64,000 nucleotides of DNA from Thermoproteota archaeon (GTDB lineage: Archaea > Thermoproteota > EX4484-205 > JAAOZP01), in contig JBNAVT010000001.1 in the NCBI GenBank assembly GCA_049700215.1, positions 1 through 64,000 on the forward strand, written 5' to 3'. The position numbers and the translations under genes are program-made. Shown one piece after another: positions 13,818-45,231 of the stretch; within the stretch, counting starts at the first letter, position 1, and every line of letters begins with the position of its first letter. The notes below the pieces were generated by a model. It made no database searches and was not told where the DNA came from. It saw only the letters and a program-made list of their open reading frames with translations.

Positions 13818-15622
13818 TGGCTGGCGGCAAGAATAGAAAGTGGGACCCGACATACATGATCGTAGCCATAGTACTGCTGATAAGCGTGTTGAAAAACGCT
13901 TCAAGCCCCCAGTTTTTTTCAAGCCTCTCCTCACCGGGGGTTGTTCAAACAGTCTCCCTGCTAATCCTGCTACTCCCAGTGTTTCTCCTCCTTTTTCACA
14001 AGCGGTCGAGCCTTGTTCAACACTTGTCTTTCAGAGAAAGCGATGATTACTTCGTCGCGAAAACGGGTTCGTCGGAGCTTGTGATAGGAGCGGTTTCAAT
14101 ACTTCCAGAGGAGGGTTCTGATAGGATCGGAGCCGGGGAGGAGGACTTCTACATCAGGACCAGGGGCCTTGTTAACGGGCTTCTTAAAGCAGGTGTCTCA
14201 ATAACGTTTGTGACCCACATGCTTCCCTCGGGAAACCCTGACGAGGATGCTCTCCTCGCCCAGCTGCTTGTGGTCAGCAGGGAAATAGGGCGGGGAGGGG
14301 TTGAGGAAGCGGTGAAAATGCTTGGAACAGATTTTGAAAAGATAAGATCTGTCTACAACACTGTTTTCCCCGGGTTAAAGCTCGTCAGGCTGAGGGGGAA
14401 GGACCTGCTTAAATACTTGAGGCGGATCCTGGTGGATGATTCCGTTATTCAGAGGGTTAAGGCAGATGACTCTGTTAAGCTTCTCACACCCCACATGCCT
14501 GACGATGAGCTCTGTTTCCTATCGTCCTCCTACAGGCCTTCGGCGGATCCTGGTGAAAACAGGGAGATCATTAGCCTCGGGTCGATTGTTTTCAACGGTT
14601 CAAAGATCATTCCTTTTAGGCTGGAGGCAGACAAGTTTAAGAAGCATATGGCTGTCTACGGTTCAACGGGATCCGGTAAGACGACAACTGTAAAGCATGT
14701 TTTAAGGGAGCTCGCTCGCCTCAAATACCCTTTTATGGTTCTAGACTGGCATAACGAGTACAGGCGTCTGGCTGAGGAGCTAAACGGCATTGTTTTTTCA
14801 CCCGGTTCTTTCTCCATAGACATACTTAACCCGATTGAGGCGAACAGCCTGTCTGAGCACGTAGCCATAGTTACAGATATTTTCGACCAGATATACGGCT
14901 TCACACCCTCCCAGTCATACATGTTTAGAGAGGTGCTTCTTCAAACACTCACGGAAAAAGAGCTCGGTATACCCGTTTCAAGCCTTCTCCGGGGGCTTGT
15001 AGAAACTTTGGAGAGGTGGAGCATTAAATCGTTCTACGAGAACGAGACAAAGTTCGCGCTTCTAAGAAGGCTGAGGCCCTTGGTAACCGGGCAGAGCGGG
15101 GAAATATTCTGCAACACGAGTAGGCTGGTGAAGATCGAAGACATTATAGATAGGAACGTGGTTTTTGAGCTGGGGGACATAGTTGAGGTGGATGTTCGTA
15201 AGCTGGTTTCGCTCTTCATCCTGGCGCTTCTCTACGAGTTCAGGGTTAAAAACGCAAGTACTAGGGGACACTTCACCGTGGTTGAGGAGGCGCATAATAT
15301 TCTGCCGTACAGGAGGCGTGACTCTCCACCGGGGATTGCTGAAAAACTTTTCTTGGAGATGAGAAAGTTTAACGAGAGCCTGATACTTGTGTCGCAGTTC
15401 CCGTCGCAAATCTCCCCTGAAATAGTTAAGTCCACAAGCCTGAAAATATCCCACAGGATATGCGAGGGGGAGGAGTCAAGGGTTCTGACAGACATAATGG
15501 GTCTTTCCCCCGGGGACTATGAGCTTCTTAAGAGGCAGATGCCGGGATACGGGTTCCTGACGGCGGAGGGCTTTCCCAAACCCGTGTTTTTCACCACGGG
15601 GCTTAACGGAAAAGGAAGCTAA
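13817..15622 (+). CDS. Membrane-anchored HerA/FtsK/VirB4-like ATPase (DUF87)
   Basis: Two N-terminal TM helices; VYGSTGSGKT, LDWHNEY, VVEEAH, EMRKF, VSQFP. Confidence 0.85.
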   Translation: MAGGKNRKWDPTYMIVAIVLLISVLKNASSPQFFSSLSSPGVVQTVSLLILLLPVFLLLFHKRSSLVQHLSFRESDDYFVAKTGSSELVIGAVSILPEEGSDRIGAGEEDFYIRTRGLVNGLLKAGVSITFVTHMLPSGNPDEDALLAQLLVVSREIGRGGVEEAVKMLGTDFEKIRSVYNTVFPGLKLVRLRGKDLLKYLRRILVDDSVIQRVKADDSVKLLTPHMPDDELCFLSSSYRPSADPGENREIISLGSIVFNGSKIIPFRLEADKFKKHMAVYGSTGSGKTTTVKHVLRELARLKYPFMVLDWHNEYRRLAEELNGIVFSPGSFSIDILNPIEANSLSEHVAIVTDIFDQIYGFTPSQSYMFREVLLQTLTEKELGIPVSSLLRGLVETLERWSIKSFYENETKFALLRRLRPLVTGQSGEIFCNTSRLVKIEDIIDRNVVFELGDIVEVDVRKLVSLFILALLYEFRVKNASTRGHFTVVEEAHNILPYRRRDSPPGIAEKLFLEMRKFNESLILVSQFPSQISPEIVKSTSLKISHRICEGEESRVLTDIMGLSPGDYELLKRQMPGYGFLTAEGFPKPVFFTTGLNGKGS

Positions 15623-28011: not shown

Positions 28012-28708
28012 TCACTTGGAGAATAAAGCACCCATCCTCTTCTCCTTAATTTCTTCTCTTCCTTTCGTGAAAGAAAGATGTAGTTTATTGTGTGATTTGG
28101 ATGGAAAGAATAGTATTGATATCCAGTATCCTCTACCCACCTATTTATTTTCTTCACGGCCGAATCAAGGTTAAGAAAGTTGTGAAAAGTATAAATTTCA
28201 ATAACATGCCCTTCACCCTTAAACTTAAAATGTACCTCGAAGCAATAACCCCACTTCTCTTCGGGCTTCAAGCTCGGGGGGATCTAATCCAGTAGGAGCC
28301 TTCCCTTTCCACTCTAACATTTTCTCAACTACATTAGTAGGCTGGAAGAAACCCCTAGAGATTCTACCAAGCTTCTTAACTAAGCCCGCTCCAACGCCTT
28401 CTTCTATTACGATATCCCAAATTTGGACGAGGACTCTTCGGATCAAAGCAGGCTAATTCGTAATCTATCTCAGCGATCTTCTTTTTCATATACCTTGCCT
28501 CATGCTTCTTTATACGTTTTTTCAAAAGGGCACCCTGAGGGGTGTCCCATAACCTATCTTCCCAGTTCACTGCATAATCTATTTCTCCATTGAAAATCTT
28601 CTTAAGGATTTCTTCAGAGTTTAAATCAGAGTAGTCTTTGAAGAAATCCATCTCGCGAAGGAAATCGATTGAGCTTATGAAGCGTTTCTTTAGCTTAGAG
28701 TTCATCAC
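28002..28708 (-). pseudogene. Hypothetical protein split by two frameshifts
   Basis: Three overlapping ORFs (28376-28708, 28225-28446, 28002-28271) join into one reading if 2-nt deletions are restored. Confidence 0.7.
28170..28289 (+). repeat. 120-bp segment duplicated in inverted orientation at 60864-60984
   Basis: Identical apart from a 1-nt and a 2-nt indel. Confidence 0.92.
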
Positions 28709-32325: not shown

Positions 32326-32503
32326 TTAGACGCAGAATCAGACTAAGCCCCCTATTTAACCACTATCGGGACAATGGGTCTTACTAAAAACTTAAAAACC
32401 TGTTTGCCGAAAAACAATGGTTAAACGTTTTCTGCTCCTAGAGCCTAGGGTTAGGGCAAAGTGTATAAGGCAGTGTTCTCAACTTTTCCCGAGGCTGATG
32501 AGA

Positions 32504-33073
32504 ATGGTGAAAACAAGTAGGATTGTTGAAATAAGGTGGCACGGCAGGGGAGGCCAGGGTGTTGTGCTTGCAAACCAGCTCGTAGGCATGGCTCTCTTCG
32601 AAGAGGGGAAAAACATTCAGACTTTCCCGGACTTCGGCCCAGAGAGGACAGGTGGTCCAGTAAGGGGTTACACACGCTTCTCAGAGGAGCCCATAGATAT
32701 ACATTCCTCAGTATACGAGCCCGACATATTGGCAGTGATAGACCCCTACTTGGCTGAGGACCCGAGCGTCTACGCCGGCCTCAAACCGGAGGGTGTTGCA
32801 GTGGTTAACTCCGCTAAAACCCCGGGAGCCCTCAGGGGGAAGCTGGGTTTAAACGTTAAGACTCTCGGCGTCGTAGACGCAGCCAGGATCTCGAAGGAGG
32901 TCTTCGGAACCTATGTTTTCAACACGCCTGTCCTAGGGGGACTGGTGAGGCTCACAGGCATAGTCAGGCTTGAGACGCTTGAAAAACTGTTTTTAAGCAG
33001 GTTCCCAGGCAGAGTTGGGGAGCTTAACGTGAAAATGCTTAAGAGGGGATATGAGGAGGTGGCGGCCCAATGA
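32504..33073 (+). CDS. porG: Pyruvate/2-oxoacid:ferredoxin oxidoreductase gamma subunit
   Basis: HGRGGQG, FGPERTGGPV. Confidence 0.92.
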   Translation: MVKTSRIVEIRWHGRGGQGVVLANQLVGMALFEEGKNIQTFPDFGPERTGGPVRGYTRFSEEPIDIHSSVYEPDILAVIDPYLAEDPSVYAGLKPEGVAVVNSAKTPGALRGKLGLNVKTLGVVDAARISKEVFGTYVFNTPVLGGLVRLTGIVRLETLEKLFLSRFPGRVGELNVKMLKRGYEEVAAQ

Positions 33074-33348
33074 GCACGACCGTAAGCTGGAGGGAGATAG
33101 ATCTGGGTGGAAGCGTAGCCGGCGGGACGAGTGAGAAGTATAAGACGGGTAACTGGAGGGTTGAGAAACCCGTTATAGACTACGAGAAGTGCGTCAGATG
33201 CCTGATATGCTGGCTCTACTGCCCTGAGCCCGCGATAATCAGGAACGGGAACGAGGTTAAAATAGACTATGACTATTGCAAGGGCTGCGGCATATGTGCA
33301 GAGGAGTGTCCGAGGAAGGCGATAACGATGGTTCCGGAGGAGATTTAG
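33070..33348 (+). CDS. porD: Pyruvate/2-oxoacid:ferredoxin oxidoreductase delta subunit
   Basis: TGNWR, two CxxCxxCxxxCP motifs. Confidence 0.93.
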   Translation: MSTTVSWREIDLGGSVAGGTSEKYKTGNWRVEKPVIDYEKCVRCLICWLYCPEPAIIRNGNEVKIDYDYCKGCGICAEECPRKAITMVPEEI

Positions 33349-33349
33349 G

Positions 33350-34546
33350 ATGATGGCTGAAGCTTTAGCAAGGCAGCACAGGATCGCGCTGACCGGGAAC
33401 GACGCTGTGGCCTACGCTGTTAAACAGGCTAACGTCGACGTGATAAGCGCATACCCGATAACTCCACAGACATTCGTCGTCGAGACGCTTTCGAGATACG
33501 TTTACGACGGCGAGTTGAACGCCAAGTTCATAAACGTGGAGTCTGAGCACTCAGCCCTCTCCGCGGTGATAGGGGCCTCGCTAGCCGGGGCGAGAGCATT
33601 CACGGCGACAGCAAGCCAGGGCCTCGCCTACATGTGGGAGGCGCTCTACGCGGCTTCAGGATTAAGGCTGCCGATAGTCATGGCTTTAGCGGCAAGAGCA
33701 TTATCCGCACCAATAAATATTCACAACGATCATTCAGACTTCTTCGGAATGAGGGACGCGGGCTGGGTAATGTTCAACGGCGAGGAGGCGCAGGAGACCT
33801 ACGACCTCACAATCATGGCTTTCAAAATCGTTGAAGACCCTAGAGTACTCCTGCCGGTAGTGGTCTCGTACGACGGCTTCATAGTGTCACACGCGATAAC
33901 AAACTTCTACGCTTTAAACGACGACGTTGTCAAGGAATTTCTGGGAGTGAGAACAACCGGGCCCAAGATAAACCCGGACGACCCGAGAACCTTCGGCGTC
34001 CTAGCTTTGCAAGACTCCTACTACGAGTTTAAAAGGCAACAGTATGAGGCGATGGAGAACGCTAGGCAAGTAATACAGGAAGTGTTTAAAAAATACGGGG
34101 AGATTTCTGGGAGAAACTACAAGCCCCTGAAAGAATACATGACGAGCGACGCGGAAACCTGCATAGTCGCGATGGGAAGCACCGTGGGAACAGCAAGACA
34201 CGCAGCCAAGATGCTGAGGGAAGAAGGCGAGAAAGTAGGCGTCGTAGGAATACTACAATACAGACCATGGCCGATTAAGGAGGCTGAACAACTATTCTCA
34301 AGGTTCAAAAGGATAATAATCATGGAGAAGGTTATGAGCCCAGGAGCAAGAGCAGGGCCTGTCTACGAGGACATCGCTTCAACACTATACCCCAACCACA
34401 ACGTTAAAATGGTGGACTTCACATACGGCCTTGGTGGAAGAGACATCTCGACGCAAGGGATCATTGAGATATACAGGAGGGGGAAGGAGCTTATCGACAA
34501 GGGTAAGACGGACAGAACCCAGTTCTACGGGGTGAGGGGAGAATGA
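33350..34546 (+). CDS. porA: Pyruvate/2-oxoacid:ferredoxin oxidoreductase alpha subunit
   Basis: YPITPQT, ESEHSA, TATASQG, GLGGRD. Confidence 0.94.
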   Translation: MMAEALARQHRIALTGNDAVAYAVKQANVDVISAYPITPQTFVVETLSRYVYDGELNAKFINVESEHSALSAVIGASLAGARAFTATASQGLAYMWEALYAASGLRLPIVMALAARALSAPINIHNDHSDFFGMRDAGWVMFNGEEAQETYDLTIMAFKIVEDPRVLLPVVVSYDGFIVSHAITNFYALNDDVVKEFLGVRTTGPKINPDDPRTFGVLALQDSYYEFKRQQYEAMENARQVIQEVFKKYGEISGRNYKPLKEYMTSDAETCIVAMGSTVGTARHAAKMLREEGEKVGVVGILQYRPWPIKEAEQLFSRFKRIIIMEKVMSPGARAGPVYEDIASTLYPNHNVKMVDFTYGLGGRDISTQGIIEIYRRGKELIDKGKTDRTQFYGVRGE

Positions 34547-35490
34547 GCAAGCTGGAACCAATATCCAAAATATCCGACCTCCCTGAGGAATCTAGATTCA
34601 GACCGGGGCACAGGCTGTGCGCAGGATGCGGGCCGGCAATAACCGCTAAACTCATAACGCTCGCAGCTCCCGAGGCAATAATCGTCAACGCGACGGGCTG
34701 CGTAGAAGTCGGGACAACAATCTACCCGTACTCAGCATGGAAAACACCATGGGTCCACGTACTCTTCCAGAACAACGCACCAGTCGCCTCAGGCATAGCA
34801 GCGGCGCTTGAAAAACTCTCAGTGGAAGGAAGAGCAAGAAAAGTACCGGTCATAGCACTAGGAGGAGACGGCGCAACATTCGACATAGGACTCGGAGCGA
34901 TCTCGGGAGCACTAGAAAGGTTAGACAAATTTATATATATATGTTATGACAATTTTGCATATATGAATACTGGGATCCAACGGTCAGGAGCTACTCCTTT
35001 GGGCGTTGCGACGACGACTAGTCCTGCTGGCAGTGTGATTCCGGGTAAGCAGGAGAACAAGAAGGATTTGATTGGGATTGTTGCTTCTCATCATATCCCT
35101 TATGCTGCTACCGCAACCATTTGGCTTTGGCGCGACATGGTTAATAAGATTAGGAAGGCTGTTAACTATAGTGAGCAGGGCCCAGCGTTTCTGCACATTC
35201 TTGCTCCATGCCAGTTCGGCTGGCGTTACGAGCCGCGTTTGACGGTTAAGGTTTCGAGGATGGCTGTTGAAACAAGGCTGTTCCCGGTTTACGAGGTTGA
35301 GGATGGTCAGCTCAGGATTAACTATAGGGTCGCTAAGCCTACTCCGGTTGAGGAGTATCTTAAGATCCAGAGGTGGACAAGGCACCTTTTGGATCCTAAG
35401 AACGCTGAGACTTTGCAGAGGCTTAAGGCTTGGATTGAGTGGAACTGGCTGCGCTTGGAGAACCTGGAGAAGGCTGGTAAAGTATTCTAG
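34543..35490 (+). CDS. porB: Pyruvate/2-oxoacid:ferredoxin oxidoreductase beta subunit
   Basis: CAGCG, GGDG TPP motif, YMNTGIQRS. Confidence 0.94.
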   Translation: MSKLEPISKISDLPEESRFRPGHRLCAGCGPAITAKLITLAAPEAIIVNATGCVEVGTTIYPYSAWKTPWVHVLFQNNAPVASGIAAALEKLSVEGRARKVPVIALGGDGATFDIGLGAISGALERLDKFIYICYDNFAYMNTGIQRSGATPLGVATTTSPAGSVIPGKQENKKDLIGIVASHHIPYAATATIWLWRDMVNKIRKAVNYSEQGPAFLHILAPCQFGWRYEPRLTVKVSRMAVETRLFPVYEVEDGQLRINYRVAKPTPVEEYLKIQRWTRHLLDPKNAETLQRLKAWIEWNWLRLENLEKAGKVF

Positions 35491-35550
35491 GGAGCAGCGG
35501 TTTCACAATAGGTTTGGCGCGCCTATAGTAGGGAACCTTCGCGCGCTGCT

Positions 35551-35944
35551 TCCAAGACTGTTAGGCAGCCTTACAGAGCCATTCCCCTTCCTGAGGAAGC
35601 CTGATGCTTAGGAACCTTGCTAGGCTCTGGAGAAGGTTCTCAGGCATGTCCCTCGACTACAGGGATTACGTTAAATGGGTTGACAGGGGTGGTGTCGCAC
35701 TGGCGGGCTTCCCCACCGGGATTAGGACAGTAAGGGTCTATGAGCATCCCAAGTCGAATAAATGGCGCGCGCGCTCATGGGCTTCACCAGTGCAGTGAGG
35801 TTCTCCATCCCCAAGGACATATATGCTGAGAGGTTTGCGAGGCTCACCGATGCGCTGATGAGGCTCGCGGAATACTCTAACGTTGGTGGCAATAGGACAG
35901 CTGGCTTCGGAGTCGTAAAGTATCTCCCTAAAAACACTTACTAG
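35551..35944 (+). pseudogene. cas6: Orphan cas6 C-terminal fragment with two frameshifts
   Basis: PLPE/SLMLRNLARLW, MGF.SAVRF, G-rich loop YSNVGGNRTAGFGVV. Confidence 0.75.
35765..35774. repeat. (GC)5 tract at cas6 frameshift
   Basis: TGGCGCGCGCGCTC where the two cas6 frames switch. Confidence 0.6.
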
Positions 35945-36125
35945 CACACTAGTATACGAGTTTCAACACGGATGACTTGAACAAGGGAGCAACGTTATTC
36001 GGAGTTTAATTTTTCAAATCGATTCGCATGGGTGCTTAAAAACTTCTCGATTCACGTTTAGCGGGATGAAAATATGCTGTTATTCGAAAAACTTATTTAA
36101 AACCTTAACCCTTATTAATCCAGCT

Positions 36126-36944
36126 ATGAGTAAGCATATTCGGCTTGTTTTAACCATAGCCTTACTATCAACCGTCCCCTCAAGCCCTCTCAAGGCTTAC
36201 GCTTCCCCCTTCGAGCTTGCTTACGATGATGGTGACTTCGACTATGCTTGGAGCGATTTCTACCCTAATGGCGCGGGGGTCAGGTTTACTCCGCCAGCAC
36301 TACCATGGAGGATAACCAGCGTTTTGCTCTACGGCCTGGCTTTGGAGAGGGGTGGAAACATGCTTTTCACCCTCGAGGTAAGGGACCAGTTTTTCGGCCT
36401 AGTCTACGTGACTCAGTATGCCACCCTCCAGTTCTTTGAGAACGGCACGTTCAGCTGGGCCAGGATTCCCCTTCCAAACATTACTCTTAACAGCGAATTC
36501 TACGTGTGCATCTACCCATGCTTCTCCCTCGACGCGACTCAGCTCTGGATAGGCGTTGACGAGGATCCCCCAATAAGCAACAGGAGCCTCCTCGTGGACA
36601 GGGAGAATGATAGGATAGTCAAAGCATGGGATATTGGCAGCGGCAGGCCTAGGAACTTCATGATAAGGGTCGAGGTGGAAGGAGAAGCCAAGCACCTGAT
36701 GGTCGACGCTCCCGGAGTATTAAAGGGCTTTGATGTGGAGAATATTGTTTTCAAAAGGCCTAAGGGCGATATTGTGAACCTGGTCGTGGCGTTTAAGAGC
36801 GGCGACGCAATCGGCTTCAGGCTGAGCCTGGGGGAAGACGGTAAGTCGGTGAAGATTACTCCGATGGTCGCTCGGGGAGAAGGCAACTACGACGAGATAC
36901 TTAGCTTAGAGTATAAGTCGGAGGTGGGACTTCGATCCTGTTGA
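36126..36944 (+). CDS. Secreted hypothetical protein, possibly chimeric
   Basis: Signal peptide MSKHIRLVLTIALL..AYA, ELAYDDG beta-sandwich-like domain; unrelated-looking tail after FMIRVEV. Confidence 0.55.
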   Translation: MSKHIRLVLTIALLSTVPSSPLKAYASPFELAYDDGDFDYAWSDFYPNGAGVRFTPPALPWRITSVLLYGLALERGGNMLFTLEVRDQFFGLVYVTQYATLQFFENGTFSWARIPLPNITLNSEFYVCIYPCFSLDATQLWIGVDEDPPISNRSLLVDRENDRIVKAWDIGSGRPRNFMIRVEVEGEAKHLMVDAPGVLKGFDVENIVFKRPKGDIVNLVVAFKSGDAIGFRLSLGEDGKSVKITPMVARGEGNYDEILSLEYKSEVGLRSC

Positions 36945-36969
36945 CCGTGTTCCGGATATAACTTTGAAG

Positions 36970-36983
36970 AAGCGCGCGCGCTT
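36970..36983. repeat. Palindrome AAGCGCGCGCGCTT
   Basis: Direct reading. Confidence 0.65.
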
Positions 36984-37340
36984 AGAAGTGCGGATCCCAA
37001 CAATAAAAAATTGGGACATGTGGTTTCGCCGAGCAGCTGAAGAGGTTTTCTAGGGTTAGGCTTCTCGTCGAATCAAGCTGTGGGCGACGTGCGCTGCCAG
37101 TTCGACTAGTAACGGGCGTACAGAGCCTTCGGTTTCTAAGTTTGCAAAGCTGTTTTAAAAATAATGCAAAGAGTTTTTCAAAATGGTTAAGCATGGCGCG
37201 GTATCAGGCCTCCTCTGCTCGAGCTCATTATCCAACGTATCATGTTCACCGACACGACTACTGTAAACACTGTTTTCCTGCAACGCGGAGCGTTAGAAAT
37301 GACTTGTCTATCGAGGGCTGGAAGCATGCGGATTCCGGTT

Positions 37341-38129
37341 TCAATAGAAGTATTCCGGCGGTTCCCTTCTCCAGGTTGATTCCTGTTGTCGGGTTGCCTC
37401 CTCCATCAGTCTGTCGAAATCTCTGCTAGCTATTTCGATATCCTCCAGGTCAATATCGATCTTCAGCATTTCAGCCAGTTTCTCAAGCATGGTGTAAATG
37501 CTTCTGGGATAAACACTGGCGGAAGGGGGGGCTTGCCCCCATAGGCTTATCACGTCAATGCCTCTTTTTTGACACGCGAGAACTAAGAGCGAGTGTATGC
37601 CTACTGGTGCAGGCTGTCGGCTGCTCCCATATGTCACGTATCCTATTCCATACTCTTTCAACTCGTCTTTCAACTTCGGGTCTCCAACTACTGCCTCCAC
37701 CGGCTGTTCTCCCATGGCTGAAATCTCCGGACTCATGACTCCGCCAATTACGTATATCCTCCTAACTTTGTAAAAGCTTGCTAAATCAATAATCGCCTCC
37801 ACGTATTCGTTGGGTCTGAAATTAGGCTCGTCGGCAAGCAAGAATATTAAATCACTACCCCTAGTATTCTTATGGTAAAATAATTCCGTGGAGGACCATT
37901 CTATCTTTCTTATAATACCCTCCTCAATCCATCCTAATGGCCGAGAGTTTTGAAGGATGTAAAAATCGTAGGGAATCATCTCGCCGAATCTCCTTGCTCC
38001 CAATTTCCTTATCAAGTAGCCCACGCTTCCGCTTGAAATTCTTCCAGCATCCGCCCATCCCCTGAACCCTAGTACGAGCAGAGGATCTTTAAGCTCAGGC
38101 TCCTCGTAAATAATGAATCTCCCCTTCAT
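37341..38129 (-). CDS. PAC2 family protein (second paralog)
   Basis: LGFRGWADAG, EPNFR, YVIGG, SLWGQAP. Confidence 0.82.
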   Translation of the reverse strand: MKGRFIIYEEPELKDPLLVLGFRGWADAGRISSGSVGYLIRKLGARRFGEMIPYDFYILQNSRPLGWIEEGIIRKIEWSSTELFYHKNTRGSDLIFLLADEPNFRPNEYVEAIIDLASFYKVRRIYVIGGVMSPEISAMGEQPVEAVVGDPKLKDELKEYGIGYVTYGSSRQPAPVGIHSLLVLACQKRGIDVISLWGQAPPSASVYPRSIYTMLEKLAEMLKIDIDLEDIEIASRDFDRLMEEATRQQESTWRREPPEYFY

Positions 38130-38309
38130 CCGCTCGGTTTAAAACTTGATTGCAGGATTTAAATCTACTGTAACCGGAATACTGGATTTTCTGGCCGCTA
38201 CCGGGGCTCATCCTTCTCCAGGGACCTTGAGAAGAGGTTGAGGGTGTGTTGATAAAAAATAAAAACATATAACCGTAAAATTTATATATTCCGAGAGGTT
38301 TGTGCCCAC

Positions 38310-38555
38310 ATGGTTAAAACAACGATAATTCTGGACGATGAGCTTTACAAGAAGCTTGTTCAAGAAGCCTTGGAGAAGTATGGGACGACGAAAAAGCTTT
38401 CTAAACTCATAAACGAGAAGTTGAGGGGTGAGGATGTTTGGAAAGCGCATAGAAAGGAGAGGCTTAGGATAAGGCTTGGGAAGGATCTTAAACGGGAGGA
38501 TATTGAGAGGCTTATTGAAGACGGTTGGAGGGAGATAGTGAAATGGAGGCCGTGA
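38310..38555 (+). CDS. vapB: VapB-like antitoxin (RHH type)
   Basis: KTTIILDDELYKKL; overlaps downstream PIN gene. Confidence 0.75.
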   Translation: MVKTTIILDDELYKKLVQEALEKYGTTKKLSKLINEKLRGEDVWKAHRKERLRIRLGKDLKREDIERLIEDGWREIVKWRP

Positions 38556-38929
38556 TTGATACGAACGTACTGGTCTACGATACTTTCGAAGACTCTGTCT
38601 ATCATAAGGATGCGGAGAGCAGGCTCTCTAATCTTAGGAAATGGGTTATTCCAACAGTTGTACTTGAAGAGTTCGTGATTGTTTTACTTCAACTTAAGAT
38701 AGAAAGGAGCTTCATCAGGGAGAAATTGCTGGAGCTTCTTGAGGACGATAGGGTGGAAGTAGTCCCGCTTTCTAGACAAAACTTTCTAGACTCTGTTGGC
38801 ATGATTTCGAGGGAGAACGTTTCTTTTAAAAGGTTAAACGACAAGCTTATAGTTTCTGTCGCTAAAGCAAGAAGACTACCGGTCTTAACGTACGATAAAG
38901 AGCTTAAGAAGGAGCGTCAAGCATCGTAA
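38543..38929 (+). CDS. vapC: VapC PIN-domain toxin
   Basis: VIDTNVLV, VLEEF, NDKLI, TYD. Confidence 0.88.
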   Translation: MEAVIDTNVLVYDTFEDSVYHKDAESRLSNLRKWVIPTVVLEEFVIVLLQLKIERSFIREKLLELLEDDRVEVVPLSRQNFLDSVGMISRENVSFKRLNDKLIVSVAKARRLPVLTYDKELKKERQAS

Positions 38930-43998: not shown

Positions 43999-44710
43999 AG
44001 GCGGTTCTAAGAGTCTAAAGAGGTATGCTGCACCATCCGTAATGCAGGTTTCAAGCGTTAAGGAGAGGAAGTTCATCACCCGGCCCCAGCCCGGTCCGCA
44101 CAGCCTCAAAATGTCCCTGCCGTTACAGGTTCTCGTCAGAGACATTTTGAAAATGGCTGAAACTGGTAGGGAGGCGAAATACGTGATAAGCCACTCAATG
44201 GTTCTCGTAGACGGGGTTGTTAGGACTTCCCACAGGTTTCCAGTAGGCTTAATGGATGTTGTAAGCATGAAGGAGCTTGGCAAACACTACCGGGTTCTAG
44301 TGGACAAAAAGGGTAGGCTCATCCCGGTTGAAATACCGCCGGAGGAGGCTTCCATGAAAATATGCAGGATAAACAGGAAATACCTTTACAAGGGTAGGCT
44401 GAGACTCGCTACTGAGGATGGGAGAACATTTGAAACAGACGACTCGTCTCTGAACGTAGGGGGCTCGCTCCTAGTTAGGGTTCCGGAGGGCGCTATCCTA
44501 GACAAGGCGCCTCTCTCCGAGGGGAGCCTCGCATACGTGTTCATGGGTAAGCATACTGGCACCATGGGTACTGTTAGAAGAATCTCTGGGTCGAGCCTAG
44601 TTAGAGAGAGCATTGTTACGCTGGGGCTTGAAGACGGGAGTGAGGTAAACACGGTCAGGGACTACGTTATTATCGTTGGGAGGGATAAGCCTTGGCTGAA
44701 ACTGTTCTAG
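43988..44710 (+). CDS. rps4e: 30S ribosomal protein S4e
   Basis: LKRYAAP, PGPH, FPVGLMDV. Confidence 0.96.
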   Translation: MARKGGSKSLKRYAAPSVMQVSSVKERKFITRPQPGPHSLKMSLPLQVLVRDILKMAETGREAKYVISHSMVLVDGVVRTSHRFPVGLMDVVSMKELGKHYRVLVDKKGRLIPVEIPPEEASMKICRINRKYLYKGRLRLATEDGRTFETDDSSLNVGGSLLVRVPEGAILDKAPLSEGSLAYVFMGKHTGTMGTVRRISGSSLVRESIVTLGLEDGSEVNTVRDYVIIVGRDKPWLKLF

Positions 44711-45231
44711 ACGAGAGGAAAGCACAGGAGAATCCTATGAGGAGGATAATGATCGAGAAGGTTGTTGTTAACATTTCCCCCGGGAAGCCGGGTGAGCCCC
44801 TTGAGAAGGCTAAGCAAGTTTTAACACTTCTAACCGGCATGAAGCCTGTTGAAAGAAGGGCTAGGAAAACAATAAAGGAGTTCGGCGTAAGGAGGCGTGA
44901 AGCCATAGCTGCAATAGTGACTCTAAGGGGCAGGAAGGCTGAGGAGTTCCTCGAGAAGGCTTTCACCGCCGTCGGCAGGAGGGTTAAGGCTTCCAGCTTT
45001 CAGAACGGGGTCTTCAGCTTCGGCGTGAAGGAGCATATTCAGTTTCCAGGGGTTAAGTATGATCCTAAGATCGGTGTACTGGGCATGGATGTCTGCGTTA
45101 AGCTTTGCAGGCCAGGGTTCCGCGTGACGTATAGGAGGCGCCGGAGGAGCAGGGTGGGCAGGGCTCACAGGATAACAAGGGAGGAGACGATTAACTTTAT
45201 GAGGGAGCGTTTTGGGCTGGAGGTTGTCTGA
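44692..45231 (+). CDS. rpl5p: 50S ribosomal protein L5
   Basis: [28 protein letters not shown]. Confidence 0.96.

Follow-up and report, generated by a model that had tools for sequence, protein, structure and literature searches.

A local strand-composition flip inside porB of a Thermoproteota archaeon lies at an apparent recombination seam

Introduction

GC-biased gene conversion is a known repair bias in heteroduplex DNA, and the strength of the strand asymmetry in mitochondrial DNA grows with the time spent single-stranded. Replication origins (bacterial and archaeal oriC as well as human origins) show abrupt changes from A/C to G/T excess with the polarity of diverging forks. In vertebrate mitochondrial DNA, the asymmetry is attributed to a strand-biased mutation spectrum (PMC1794132), while at meiotic breaks the mutations C>N and A>N have been reported from the forward strand on the left-hand side (PMC7615360). 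Moreover, the archaeal mismatch nuclease NucS/EndoMS cuts G/T, G/G and T/T mismatches and hardly A/C, A/A and C/C mismatches, as reported (PMC4838380). Here, we analyse a flip of origin-like polarity inside porB, the last gene of a por operon on a 64,000-nucleotide stretch of DNA from a Thermoproteota archaeon (hereafter the window). An initial annotation, made from the letters of the window, had described the flip as an abrupt change of synonymous codon choice around an A+T-rich (TA)n patch, and had proposed that a bidirectional start point is hidden in the gene.

Results

A composition flip within porB

The window lies on a 125-kb contig (C1) of a genome (G000) of approximately 2.1 Mb that comprises 85 contigs and is 94.6% complete. 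Open reading frames (ORFs) are our own longest-ORF calls of at least 120 amino acids rather than a curated annotation; 1675 were called in total and 1233 were long enough for testing. Based on Pfam matches, the operon has the order porG-porD-porA-porB and occupies positions 32417-35490 on the + strand. The features of the locus are the following:

32417..33073, + strand: porG, POR gamma subunit (Pfam POR, 2.2e-37)
33070..33348, + strand: porD, ferredoxin-type delta subunit (Pfam Fer4 families)
33350..34546, + strand: porA (Pfam POR_N and PFOR_II)
34543..35490, + strand: porB, beta subunit that binds thiamine pyrophosphate (TPP), holds the flip (Pfam TPP_enzyme_C)
32600..34929, + strand: A/C-type domain of approximately 2.3 kb, in which free sites avoid T (and G), increasingly so near the seam
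34930..34980, + strand: seam or overlap zone, A+T-rich, which encodes the conserved KFIYICYDNFAYMNTG stretch of the TPP-binding domain
34981..35490, + strand: G/T-type domain of approximately 0.5 kb (510 nt), in which free sites avoid A (and C) as far as the porB stop codon
34922..34941, + strand (sense): promoter-like match TAGACAAATTTATATATATA to a transcription factor B recognition element (BRE) and TATA box, weight-matrix score 12.1, promoter function putative
34984..35385, - strand: antisense ORF of 133 codons (from the ORF list)
35491..38929, no strand assigned: variable DNA behind porB, with a 575-nt stretch without long ORFs, an ORF without family match, a PAC2-family gene, and a PIN-domain toxin with a small upstream ORF

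Third codon positions of porB were A58 C40 G26 T5 before the seam (34543-34929; n=129) and A10 C27 G68 T64 after it (34981-35487; n=169), and the difference was highly significant (Fisher's exact test, keto versus amino p=4.4e-21, T versus A p=4.7e-22). In the intervening codons (34930-34980) the counts were A4 C2 G2 T9, i.e. 13 of 17 codons end in A or T. The three codon regimes of the initial annotation, A/C-ending before about 34930, T/G-ending after about 34980 in the same gene and AT-ending in between, were all recovered, and the significance of the skew change, which it had left to be computed, is established. The same change is seen in the two-fold codon classes, in which the genome-wide preference is for C and G: upstream of the seam, pyrimidine codons were C21/T0 and purine codons A17/G6, while downstream they were T22/C17 and G42/A2. 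Among the 1233 ORFs, porB has the biggest jump between neighbouring 100-codon windows (0.54); the mean third-position G+T of 100-codon windows in our ORFs is 0.528 (sd 0.074).

On the left side, the T-poor and A-rich trend starts inside porG, where third-position G+T drops from 0.70 to 0.33-0.47. From porG to the seam, G+T declines (Spearman rho -0.63, p=0.003, 20 bins), T declines (rho -0.72) and A increases (rho 0.60), so that the strengthening towards the site that had been noticed holds across four genes. Within this trend, porA has a moderate A/C skew (third positions A107 C130 G122 T40), and in the final 100 codons before the seam third-position G+T is 0.15-0.23. The gene next after porB has a normal composition. 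The antisense ORF at 34984..35385 is most likely a by-product of composition, because a T-depleted strand, as judged from that composition, has few stop codons.

The flip is conserved in the genus

The operon was found in 11 genomes of the same genus at 77-87% identity and on either contig strand. All 11 orthologues flip, with a third-position G+T of 0.09-0.32 before and 0.60-0.82 after the seam, and a change-point search placed the composition switch at 34926-34995 in 12/12 genus sequences (the 11 relatives and our own). The comparison of porB orthologues that the initial annotation had called for therefore supports the flip. Moreover, Logan contigs from two runs of two studies bridge the seam, one covering 33350-35776 with 3 differences and one covering 34626-35180 with 0 differences. 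A chimera of assembly or binning, or a consensus artefact, could be suspected in an assembly fragmented into 85 contigs, and our initial impression was that strong A/C-rich patches lie mainly on the + strand of contigs. However, this excess was mostly due to runs of 100 N, which look like A/C-rich patches because our scripts score N as not G/T, and the flip tracks the coding sense in the 12 genomes on either contig strand. Together with the contigs of two studies that span the seam, these observations leave an artefact with a negligible probability; specifically, the N runs and the tracking of coding sense rule out a consensus that chooses the alphabetically first allele. Runs of exactly 100 N break genes on many contigs (e.g. 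C2 at ~14700, C4 at ~39600 and C11 at ~49350).

The seam coincides with a breakpoint in divergence

Two relatives, G006 and G011, are 97-99% identical over 3.08 kb left of the porB seam. At the seam, their divergence leaps from 0.027 to 0.20 (best-supported breakpoint 34938, maximum chi2 187), and the remainder of porB, from codon 135 onwards, has synonymous differences at 67 codons and non-synonymous ones at 23. Behind porB, they carry a non-homologous cassette of approximately 1.1 kb, after which identity is back at 97%. In this pair, the variable block thus begins at the seam. The cassette of G006 has a small ORF and a PIN-like ORF, and that of G011 two small ORFs, all described without a family search. 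Trees of the two sides of porB differ, and the left-half data reject the grouping of the right half (approximately unbiased (AU) test, p=2.7e-5).

Similar breakpoints were found in two other genes with composition flips. In EF-2, the first ~100 codons are 4-6 times more divergent than the remaining codons and the gene that follows; three pairs have their divergence breakpoints at codons 104, 102 and 99, a fourth pair has it at codon 151, and the composition flips at codon 104. In EF-1a, the divergence breakpoints are at codons 86, 75 and 86, and the composition flips near codon 86. Third-position divergence in the G/T patch is not above that of the adjacent normal gene. In total, the alignments and trees show that the seam separates DNA of different histories, the 3' half of porB having been exchanged along with the variable DNA behind the gene. 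The initial annotation had listed discordant phylogenies of the two halves, from a recombinant or a chimeric assembly, as an argument against its proposal; this discordance is largely what we find as far as the different histories of the halves are concerned, while a chimeric assembly is contradicted.

Variable DNA and duplicated gene tails

In all nine relatives' loci that reach past porB, similarity ends at 35488-35493, i.e. at the porB stop codon. Within the window, direct repeats bounding the insert behind porB were limited to two chance-like 19-nt pairs, no integrase was found, and one scan detected no relative of the porB 3' half on viral contigs. At 38310-38929 of the window, a small ORF without Pfam match precedes a PIN-domain gene, and the two may be a toxin-antitoxin pair of the VapBC type.

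The 3' ends of several genes with patches occur in extra copies. The ~150 nt of TBP from its flip to the stop codon are present as 40 extra copies of at least 90 nt in 11 of the 16 other genus members, and 28 of these 40 begin at positions matching 44889-44897 of contig C15, 5-13 nt from the flip peak at 44884. On one contig, seven TBP-tail copies lie between small cassettes, which comprise PIN toxins, a toxin-antitoxin pair, a UDG-like gene and an AAA_14 ATPase. The tails of uL2, EF-1a, TFB and PpsA are likewise duplicated, as is the porB tail in one relative, G013, which has one extra copy of the last 128 nt.

Arrays of the ~150-nt TBP tail were seen at L080 (G003:C26:1-16820) and also on G006:C21, G012:C67, G010:C56 and G011:C8. 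Their cassettes include PIN toxins, a UPF0175/DUF3368 pair, a UDG-like gene, an AAA_14/DUF4143 ATPase and winged helix-turn-helix proteins. The arrays resemble an integron-style cassette platform, and no integrase was seen in them.

Skewed patches elsewhere in the genome

The porB seam is one of about ten strong patches in conserved housekeeping genes of the 2.1-Mb genome. Delimited as likelihood-ratio segments, the patches are the following:

G/T-type: EF-1a, codons 100-437
G/T-type: EF-2, codons 104-497
G/T-type: glutamate dehydrogenase (GDH), whole gene
G/T-type: coiled-coil protein on contig C55
G/T-type: ThrRS, codons 237-470
G/T-type: porB, codons 149-312
A/C-type: PpsA, codons 12-408
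A/C-type: TFB, codons 26-247
A/C-type: uL2, codons 10-193
A/C-type: TBP, codons 2-131
A/C-type: porB, codons 31-129

Additionally, uL2 and TBP switch to G/T close to their 3' ends. In the raw sequence, at a jump |D| of at least 0.16 (sd 0.041), 25 flips run from A/C to G/T and 5 in reverse, i.e. polarity is systematic; several flips are located at promoters of tRNA genes and of GDH. The search for further flips that the initial annotation had suggested thus returned at least 25 of the same polarity.

The uL2 pattern recurs in 10 relatives and the EF-1a pattern in 11. In 5/5 genus genomes, EF-1a has a third-position G+T of 0.78-0.93; the corresponding values in 25/25 genomes from other families in the order and phylum lie at 0.38-0.57. 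Likewise, the raw AT skew of porB changes from +0.29 to -0.12 across the seam in our genome, and this change of sign is absent in 2/2 genomes of other families. The patches are found solely in this genus of hot-spring archaea among the genomes searched. The literature searched, including the main text of the description of Brockarchaeota by a search for terms, contains no mention of such patches; recombination between archaeal EF-1a genes is the subject of a 2006 paper.

Two possible sources of the patches were rejected. Among 28 domains, just two weak pairwise similarities were found, which does not make an A/C-rich repeat family. Similarly, divergence from a second intragenomic gene copy was rejected, as tblastn with 16 patch proteins found no full second copies and only tail fragments of PpsA and TBP.

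Several other elements were seen near patches or flips. A 73-nt stretch is shared at 95% identity upstream of GDH (C13 47842-47914) and of the coiled-coil gene (C55 1332-1404), and it may be a tRNA-like repeat. Almost T-free non-coding stretches of 350-450 nt lie upstream of tRNA genes (C19 1015-1616, C8 50132-50669 and C8 55065-55579). Copies of a mini-element adjoin tRNA genes; one copy (C19 2-724) is beside the T-free stretch at C19 1015-1616, and a partial copy (C8 51617-52233) is approximately 1 kb from that at C8 50132-50669. Upstream of TBP, the A/C-rich non-coding stretch recurs 7 kb off at 71% identity (C15 37260-37609 versus 44041-44395), and relatives have more copies.

The bias acts on nucleotides

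The order of bases is A >> C >= G >> T in A/C patches and T >> G > C >> A in G/T patches, i.e. the two are mutual complements; for alanine, GCA/GCC/GCG/GCT make up 56/16/18/11% of codons in A/C patches and 0.7/8.5/21/70% in G/T patches. The first position of leucine codons shifts as well, with TTA/(TTA+CTA) at 20% in A/C patches versus 49% genome-wide, and TTG/(TTG+CTG) at 69% in G/T patches versus 35% genome-wide. The G/T domain of EF-1a spans a 225-nt spacer (G+T 0.65), reaches the next ORF (third-position G+T 0.73) and then fades, and that of EF-2 becomes weaker the farther it is from where it starts (right side, rho -0.84, p=9e-5). Non-coding flanks of patches are skewed as well. Among 12 species, 119/126, 45/52 and 41/49 four-fold sites are variable, while the bias is kept in every species. 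Because of the leucine first positions, the spacer and next ORF behind EF-1a, the gradients, and the turnover of four-fold sites with the bias kept, we conclude that the force works on nucleotides rather than codons, is regional, fades with distance and is still active. Four-fold sites are near saturation, and the pairwise substitution spectrum was uninformative.

At each flip, T-ending codons start 10-30 codons before A-ending ones end, and this overlap gives rise to the A+T-rich centre. The (TA)n patch may therefore be a product of the process and not a pre-existing unwinding element. The DNA at the seam folds no better into a hairpin than shuffled sequences (z 0.45), and neither tRNAs nor other RNA genes were found at or behind it.

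The gene behind EF-1a (C19 23556-24034, - strand), into which the G/T skew of EF-1a reaches, consists of two adjacent ORFs of 110 and 47 amino acids and is possibly frameshifted; by eye, it looks like a flavin reductase.

Discussion

Our best reading, which we put forward as tentative although quite possible, is that a recombination-linked, strand-specific process proceeds outward from the seam. Recombination between diverged relatives would repeatedly begin or end at the seam, which sits in the most conserved coding stretch, where nucleotide identity would be available for recombination. Such events would make strand-specific intermediates that run outward, i.e. displaced single strands or heteroduplex, on which a strand-specific filter would enrich free sites for A/C on one strand and for G/T on its complement, the favoured strand switching at the seam. 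One candidate for this filter is heat-driven loss of A and C from the exposed strand, for which the mitochondrial heavy strand is a precedent; the other is NucS/EndoMS, which is encoded in our genome and in 15 of the 16 other genus members. A broader formulation, which we regard as doubtful, would be that recombination seams in conserved genes seed local strand-specific amino/keto-biased conversion or mutation, e.g. by NucS/EndoMS acting on heteroduplex or by strand-displacement synthesis, that saturates synonymous sites within 0.5-2.5 kb and flips its sign at the seam, and that the 3' ends of the same genes are integrase-less cassette platforms. No description of strand-specific amino/keto-biased conversion was found in the literature searched.

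Several observations weigh against recombination as the source of the flip. The short right half of porB does not significantly reject a clade of G006 and G011 (AU test, p=0.117), and no repeat of the porB tail was found in G000. EF-2 has a patch, yet its locus is collinear in the relatives and its tail is not duplicated; therefore, not every patch is linked to cassette insertion. Many unskewed lineages have NucS as well, so that this nuclease cannot explain the restriction to this genus and is ruled out as a genus-specific cause. The polarity is opposite to that of the strands exposed by resection at meiotic breaks, so that a plain model of a break plus damaged 3' tails fails. What speaks for the mechanism is geometry and coincidence, and which way a NucS-driven bias would point is a matter of reasoning. 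Finally, the patch genes are the classic highly expressed set (EF-1a, EF-2, GDH, PpsA, POR and ribosomal proteins), which fits transcription as well as codon selection. Conversion mediated by complementary DNA was rejected, as a search of the genome, which is 94.6% complete, detected no reverse transcriptase (PF00078). The underlying bias may lie in mutation, in conversion or in selection.

Genes for EF-1a, EF-2, GDH, PpsA, POR and ribosomal proteins are usually among the most transcribed. If the A+T-rich centre were a strong internal two-way promoter, the exposed non-template strand of each outward transcript would lose A and C, leaving G/T on the right and A/C on the left by transcription or R-loop asymmetry. 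The polarity agrees; the sense BRE/TATA-like match is at the seam and a similar one is at the TFB flip (C40 4225/4226), as scored with a weight matrix built from 491 upstream sites of the genome itself; the coding strand of ribosomal-protein genes at 39-59 kb has a mild G/T excess; and the location of several flips at tRNA-gene and GDH promoters agrees as well. However, 269 intragenic promoter-like matches have a mean D of 0.006 versus -0.002 (sd 0.037) for random intragenic sites, with D above 0.15 in 0.7%, and 102 strong tandem promoters lack a jump, i.e. a general skew jump at promoters is absent. Moreover, uL2 is of the A/C type within an operon of neighbours that are not, no antisense promoter match scoring at least 11 was found at the porB seam, and antisense RNAs across A-rich sense DNA would carry many U-runs, which are the archaeal termination signal. 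Transcription also leaves the divergence breakpoints at the seams unexplained. We consider it unlikely, while it retains weight because the patch genes are usually highly expressed and a promoter-like match lies at the seam. Selection could instead have maintained two codon dialects, shaped by tRNA pools or mRNA properties, with recombination joining an A/C-dialect 5' part and a G/T-dialect 3' part of porB. The different histories of the porB halves, the unremarkable third-position divergence in the G/T patch and the peak of the bias in the usual reference genes of codon adaptation (EF-1a, EF-2 and GDH) would agree with this, and by reasoning an amino/keto split is the one route to two maximally different synonymous encodings at constant G+C. 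But gradients cross gene borders (from porG to porB, and from EF-1a to the spacer and next ORF), non-coding flanks are skewed, genes expected to be highly expressed take opposite directions (uL2 versus other ribosomal proteins), and a selective reason for a switch within a protein is hard to see. Similarly, translational bias would be confined to synonymous coding sites and have one direction per genome, while here a spacer is skewed and opposite directions coexist. Selection on dialects is thus even less likely than an effect of transcription.

The proposal of the initial annotation that a chromosomal replication origin, or another regular initiation site, is hidden in porB had several observations in its favour: the polarity is that of diverging forks, the centre is A+T-rich, genes to the right are mostly on the + strand, and the cumulative third-position keto skew that it had suggested computing has its minimum within 30-40 kb at 34929 (-7, versus a minimum over the 125-kb contig of -18 at 704). 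However, strong skew extends no farther than ~2.3 kb to the left and 0.5 kb to the right. When strands are kept apart, the shift beyond the por operon is ~0.04 and is gone past 64 kb, and because of this the cumulative trend beyond the operon reflects gene orientation; the suggested computation thus returned the local minimum and no lasting shift. The site is intragenic, its halves have different histories, and the genome has 25 flips with about 10 strong patches. Matches to the ORB-like (origin recognition box) motif TTCCAGTGGAAA with at most 2 mismatches number 7 in the 64 kb versus 6.3 expected, the nearest at 28306 and none within 6 kb. An orc1/cdc6 gene is found elsewhere, on contig C28 (TIGR02928, 380 bits, cut-off 181), with ORB-like repeats and only a weak change in composition; further TIGR02928 matches are on C2, C21, C7 and C11 and none is on C1, so that the initial annotation was right in seeing no cdc6/orc1 in the window. 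Because the skew is local, the flips are many, orc1/cdc6 and ORB-like repeats are on C28, no ORB motif is nearby and the halves are discordant, an origin in porB is very improbable, and the porB site is most likely not the chromosomal replication origin. The alternative offered in the same proposal, an entry site of a strand-asymmetric process, fits the geometry, with an outward polarity (A/C-rich and then G/T-rich when either strand is read 5' to 3'), left-side decay and an A+T-rich overlap centre. On C28, a spacer of ~590 nt with TTCCAGTGGAAA-type repeats (14529-15113) lies directly upstream of orc1/cdc6 (C28:15114-16355), and from this arrangement it is likely the canonical replication origin.

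The state of synonymous sites in marker genes (EF-1a, EF-2, TBP and uL2, for example) is commonly ascribed to genome-wide mutation bias and translational selection. Here, these sites are pushed nearly to fixation by a local strand-specific force with a sign that changes inside genes and coincides with recombination seams. Should this force stem from recombination or from repair, prokaryotes would have their own equivalent of biased gene conversion, on an amino/keto axis that is new, and recombination start sites and cassette platforms of uncultured archaea could be located from sequence alone. Moreover, the patches mimic chimeric assemblies and horizontal transfer in screens based on composition, distort estimates of expression based on codon usage and can mislead nucleotide phylogenies of these marker genes.

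Compared with described systems, the recombination-linked reading finds partial parallels. Origin skews are weak and extend over replichores, while the porB site is intragenic and lacks ORB elements, and the genome's own canonical candidate on C28 shows nothing comparable. Integrative elements and cassette arrays at gene 3' ends are similar in that the tails of TBP, uL2, PpsA, EF-1a, TFB and, in one relative, porB are copied and similarity stops at the porB stop codon; they differ in that the window has no integrase and no porB-tail repeat, that the G/T domain of porB (510 nt) exceeds the duplicated 128-nt tail, and that the EF-2 patch has no sign of insertion. Vertebrate mitochondrial DNA, with its A/C-rich light and G/T-rich heavy strand, shares the amino/keto axis and third positions nearly emptied of one or two bases; four-fold sites here have an amino/keto skew that nearly removes one base, and the skew is graded with distance. 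By contrast, the mitochondrial asymmetry extends over an entire small genome and is linked to how that genome replicates, whereas here patches of 0.5-2.5 kb in a 2-Mb chromosome flip inside genes, and the most depleted base is A (or T) and not G. Meiotic double-strand-break hotspots, in the part of the study considered here, show an asymmetric change over ~2 kb per side, a strand switch at the centre and a symmetric central zone, as at porB; however, at those hotspots C and A are lost from the forward strand left of the break, whereas the + strand at porB gains A and C to the left of the seam (PMC7615360). Finally, a repair bias in heteroduplex, as in GC-biased conversion or with NucS, could shift composition locally around recombination sites without selection, and the distinction between keto-keto and amino-amino mismatches made by EndoMS is the axis seen here (PMC4838380).

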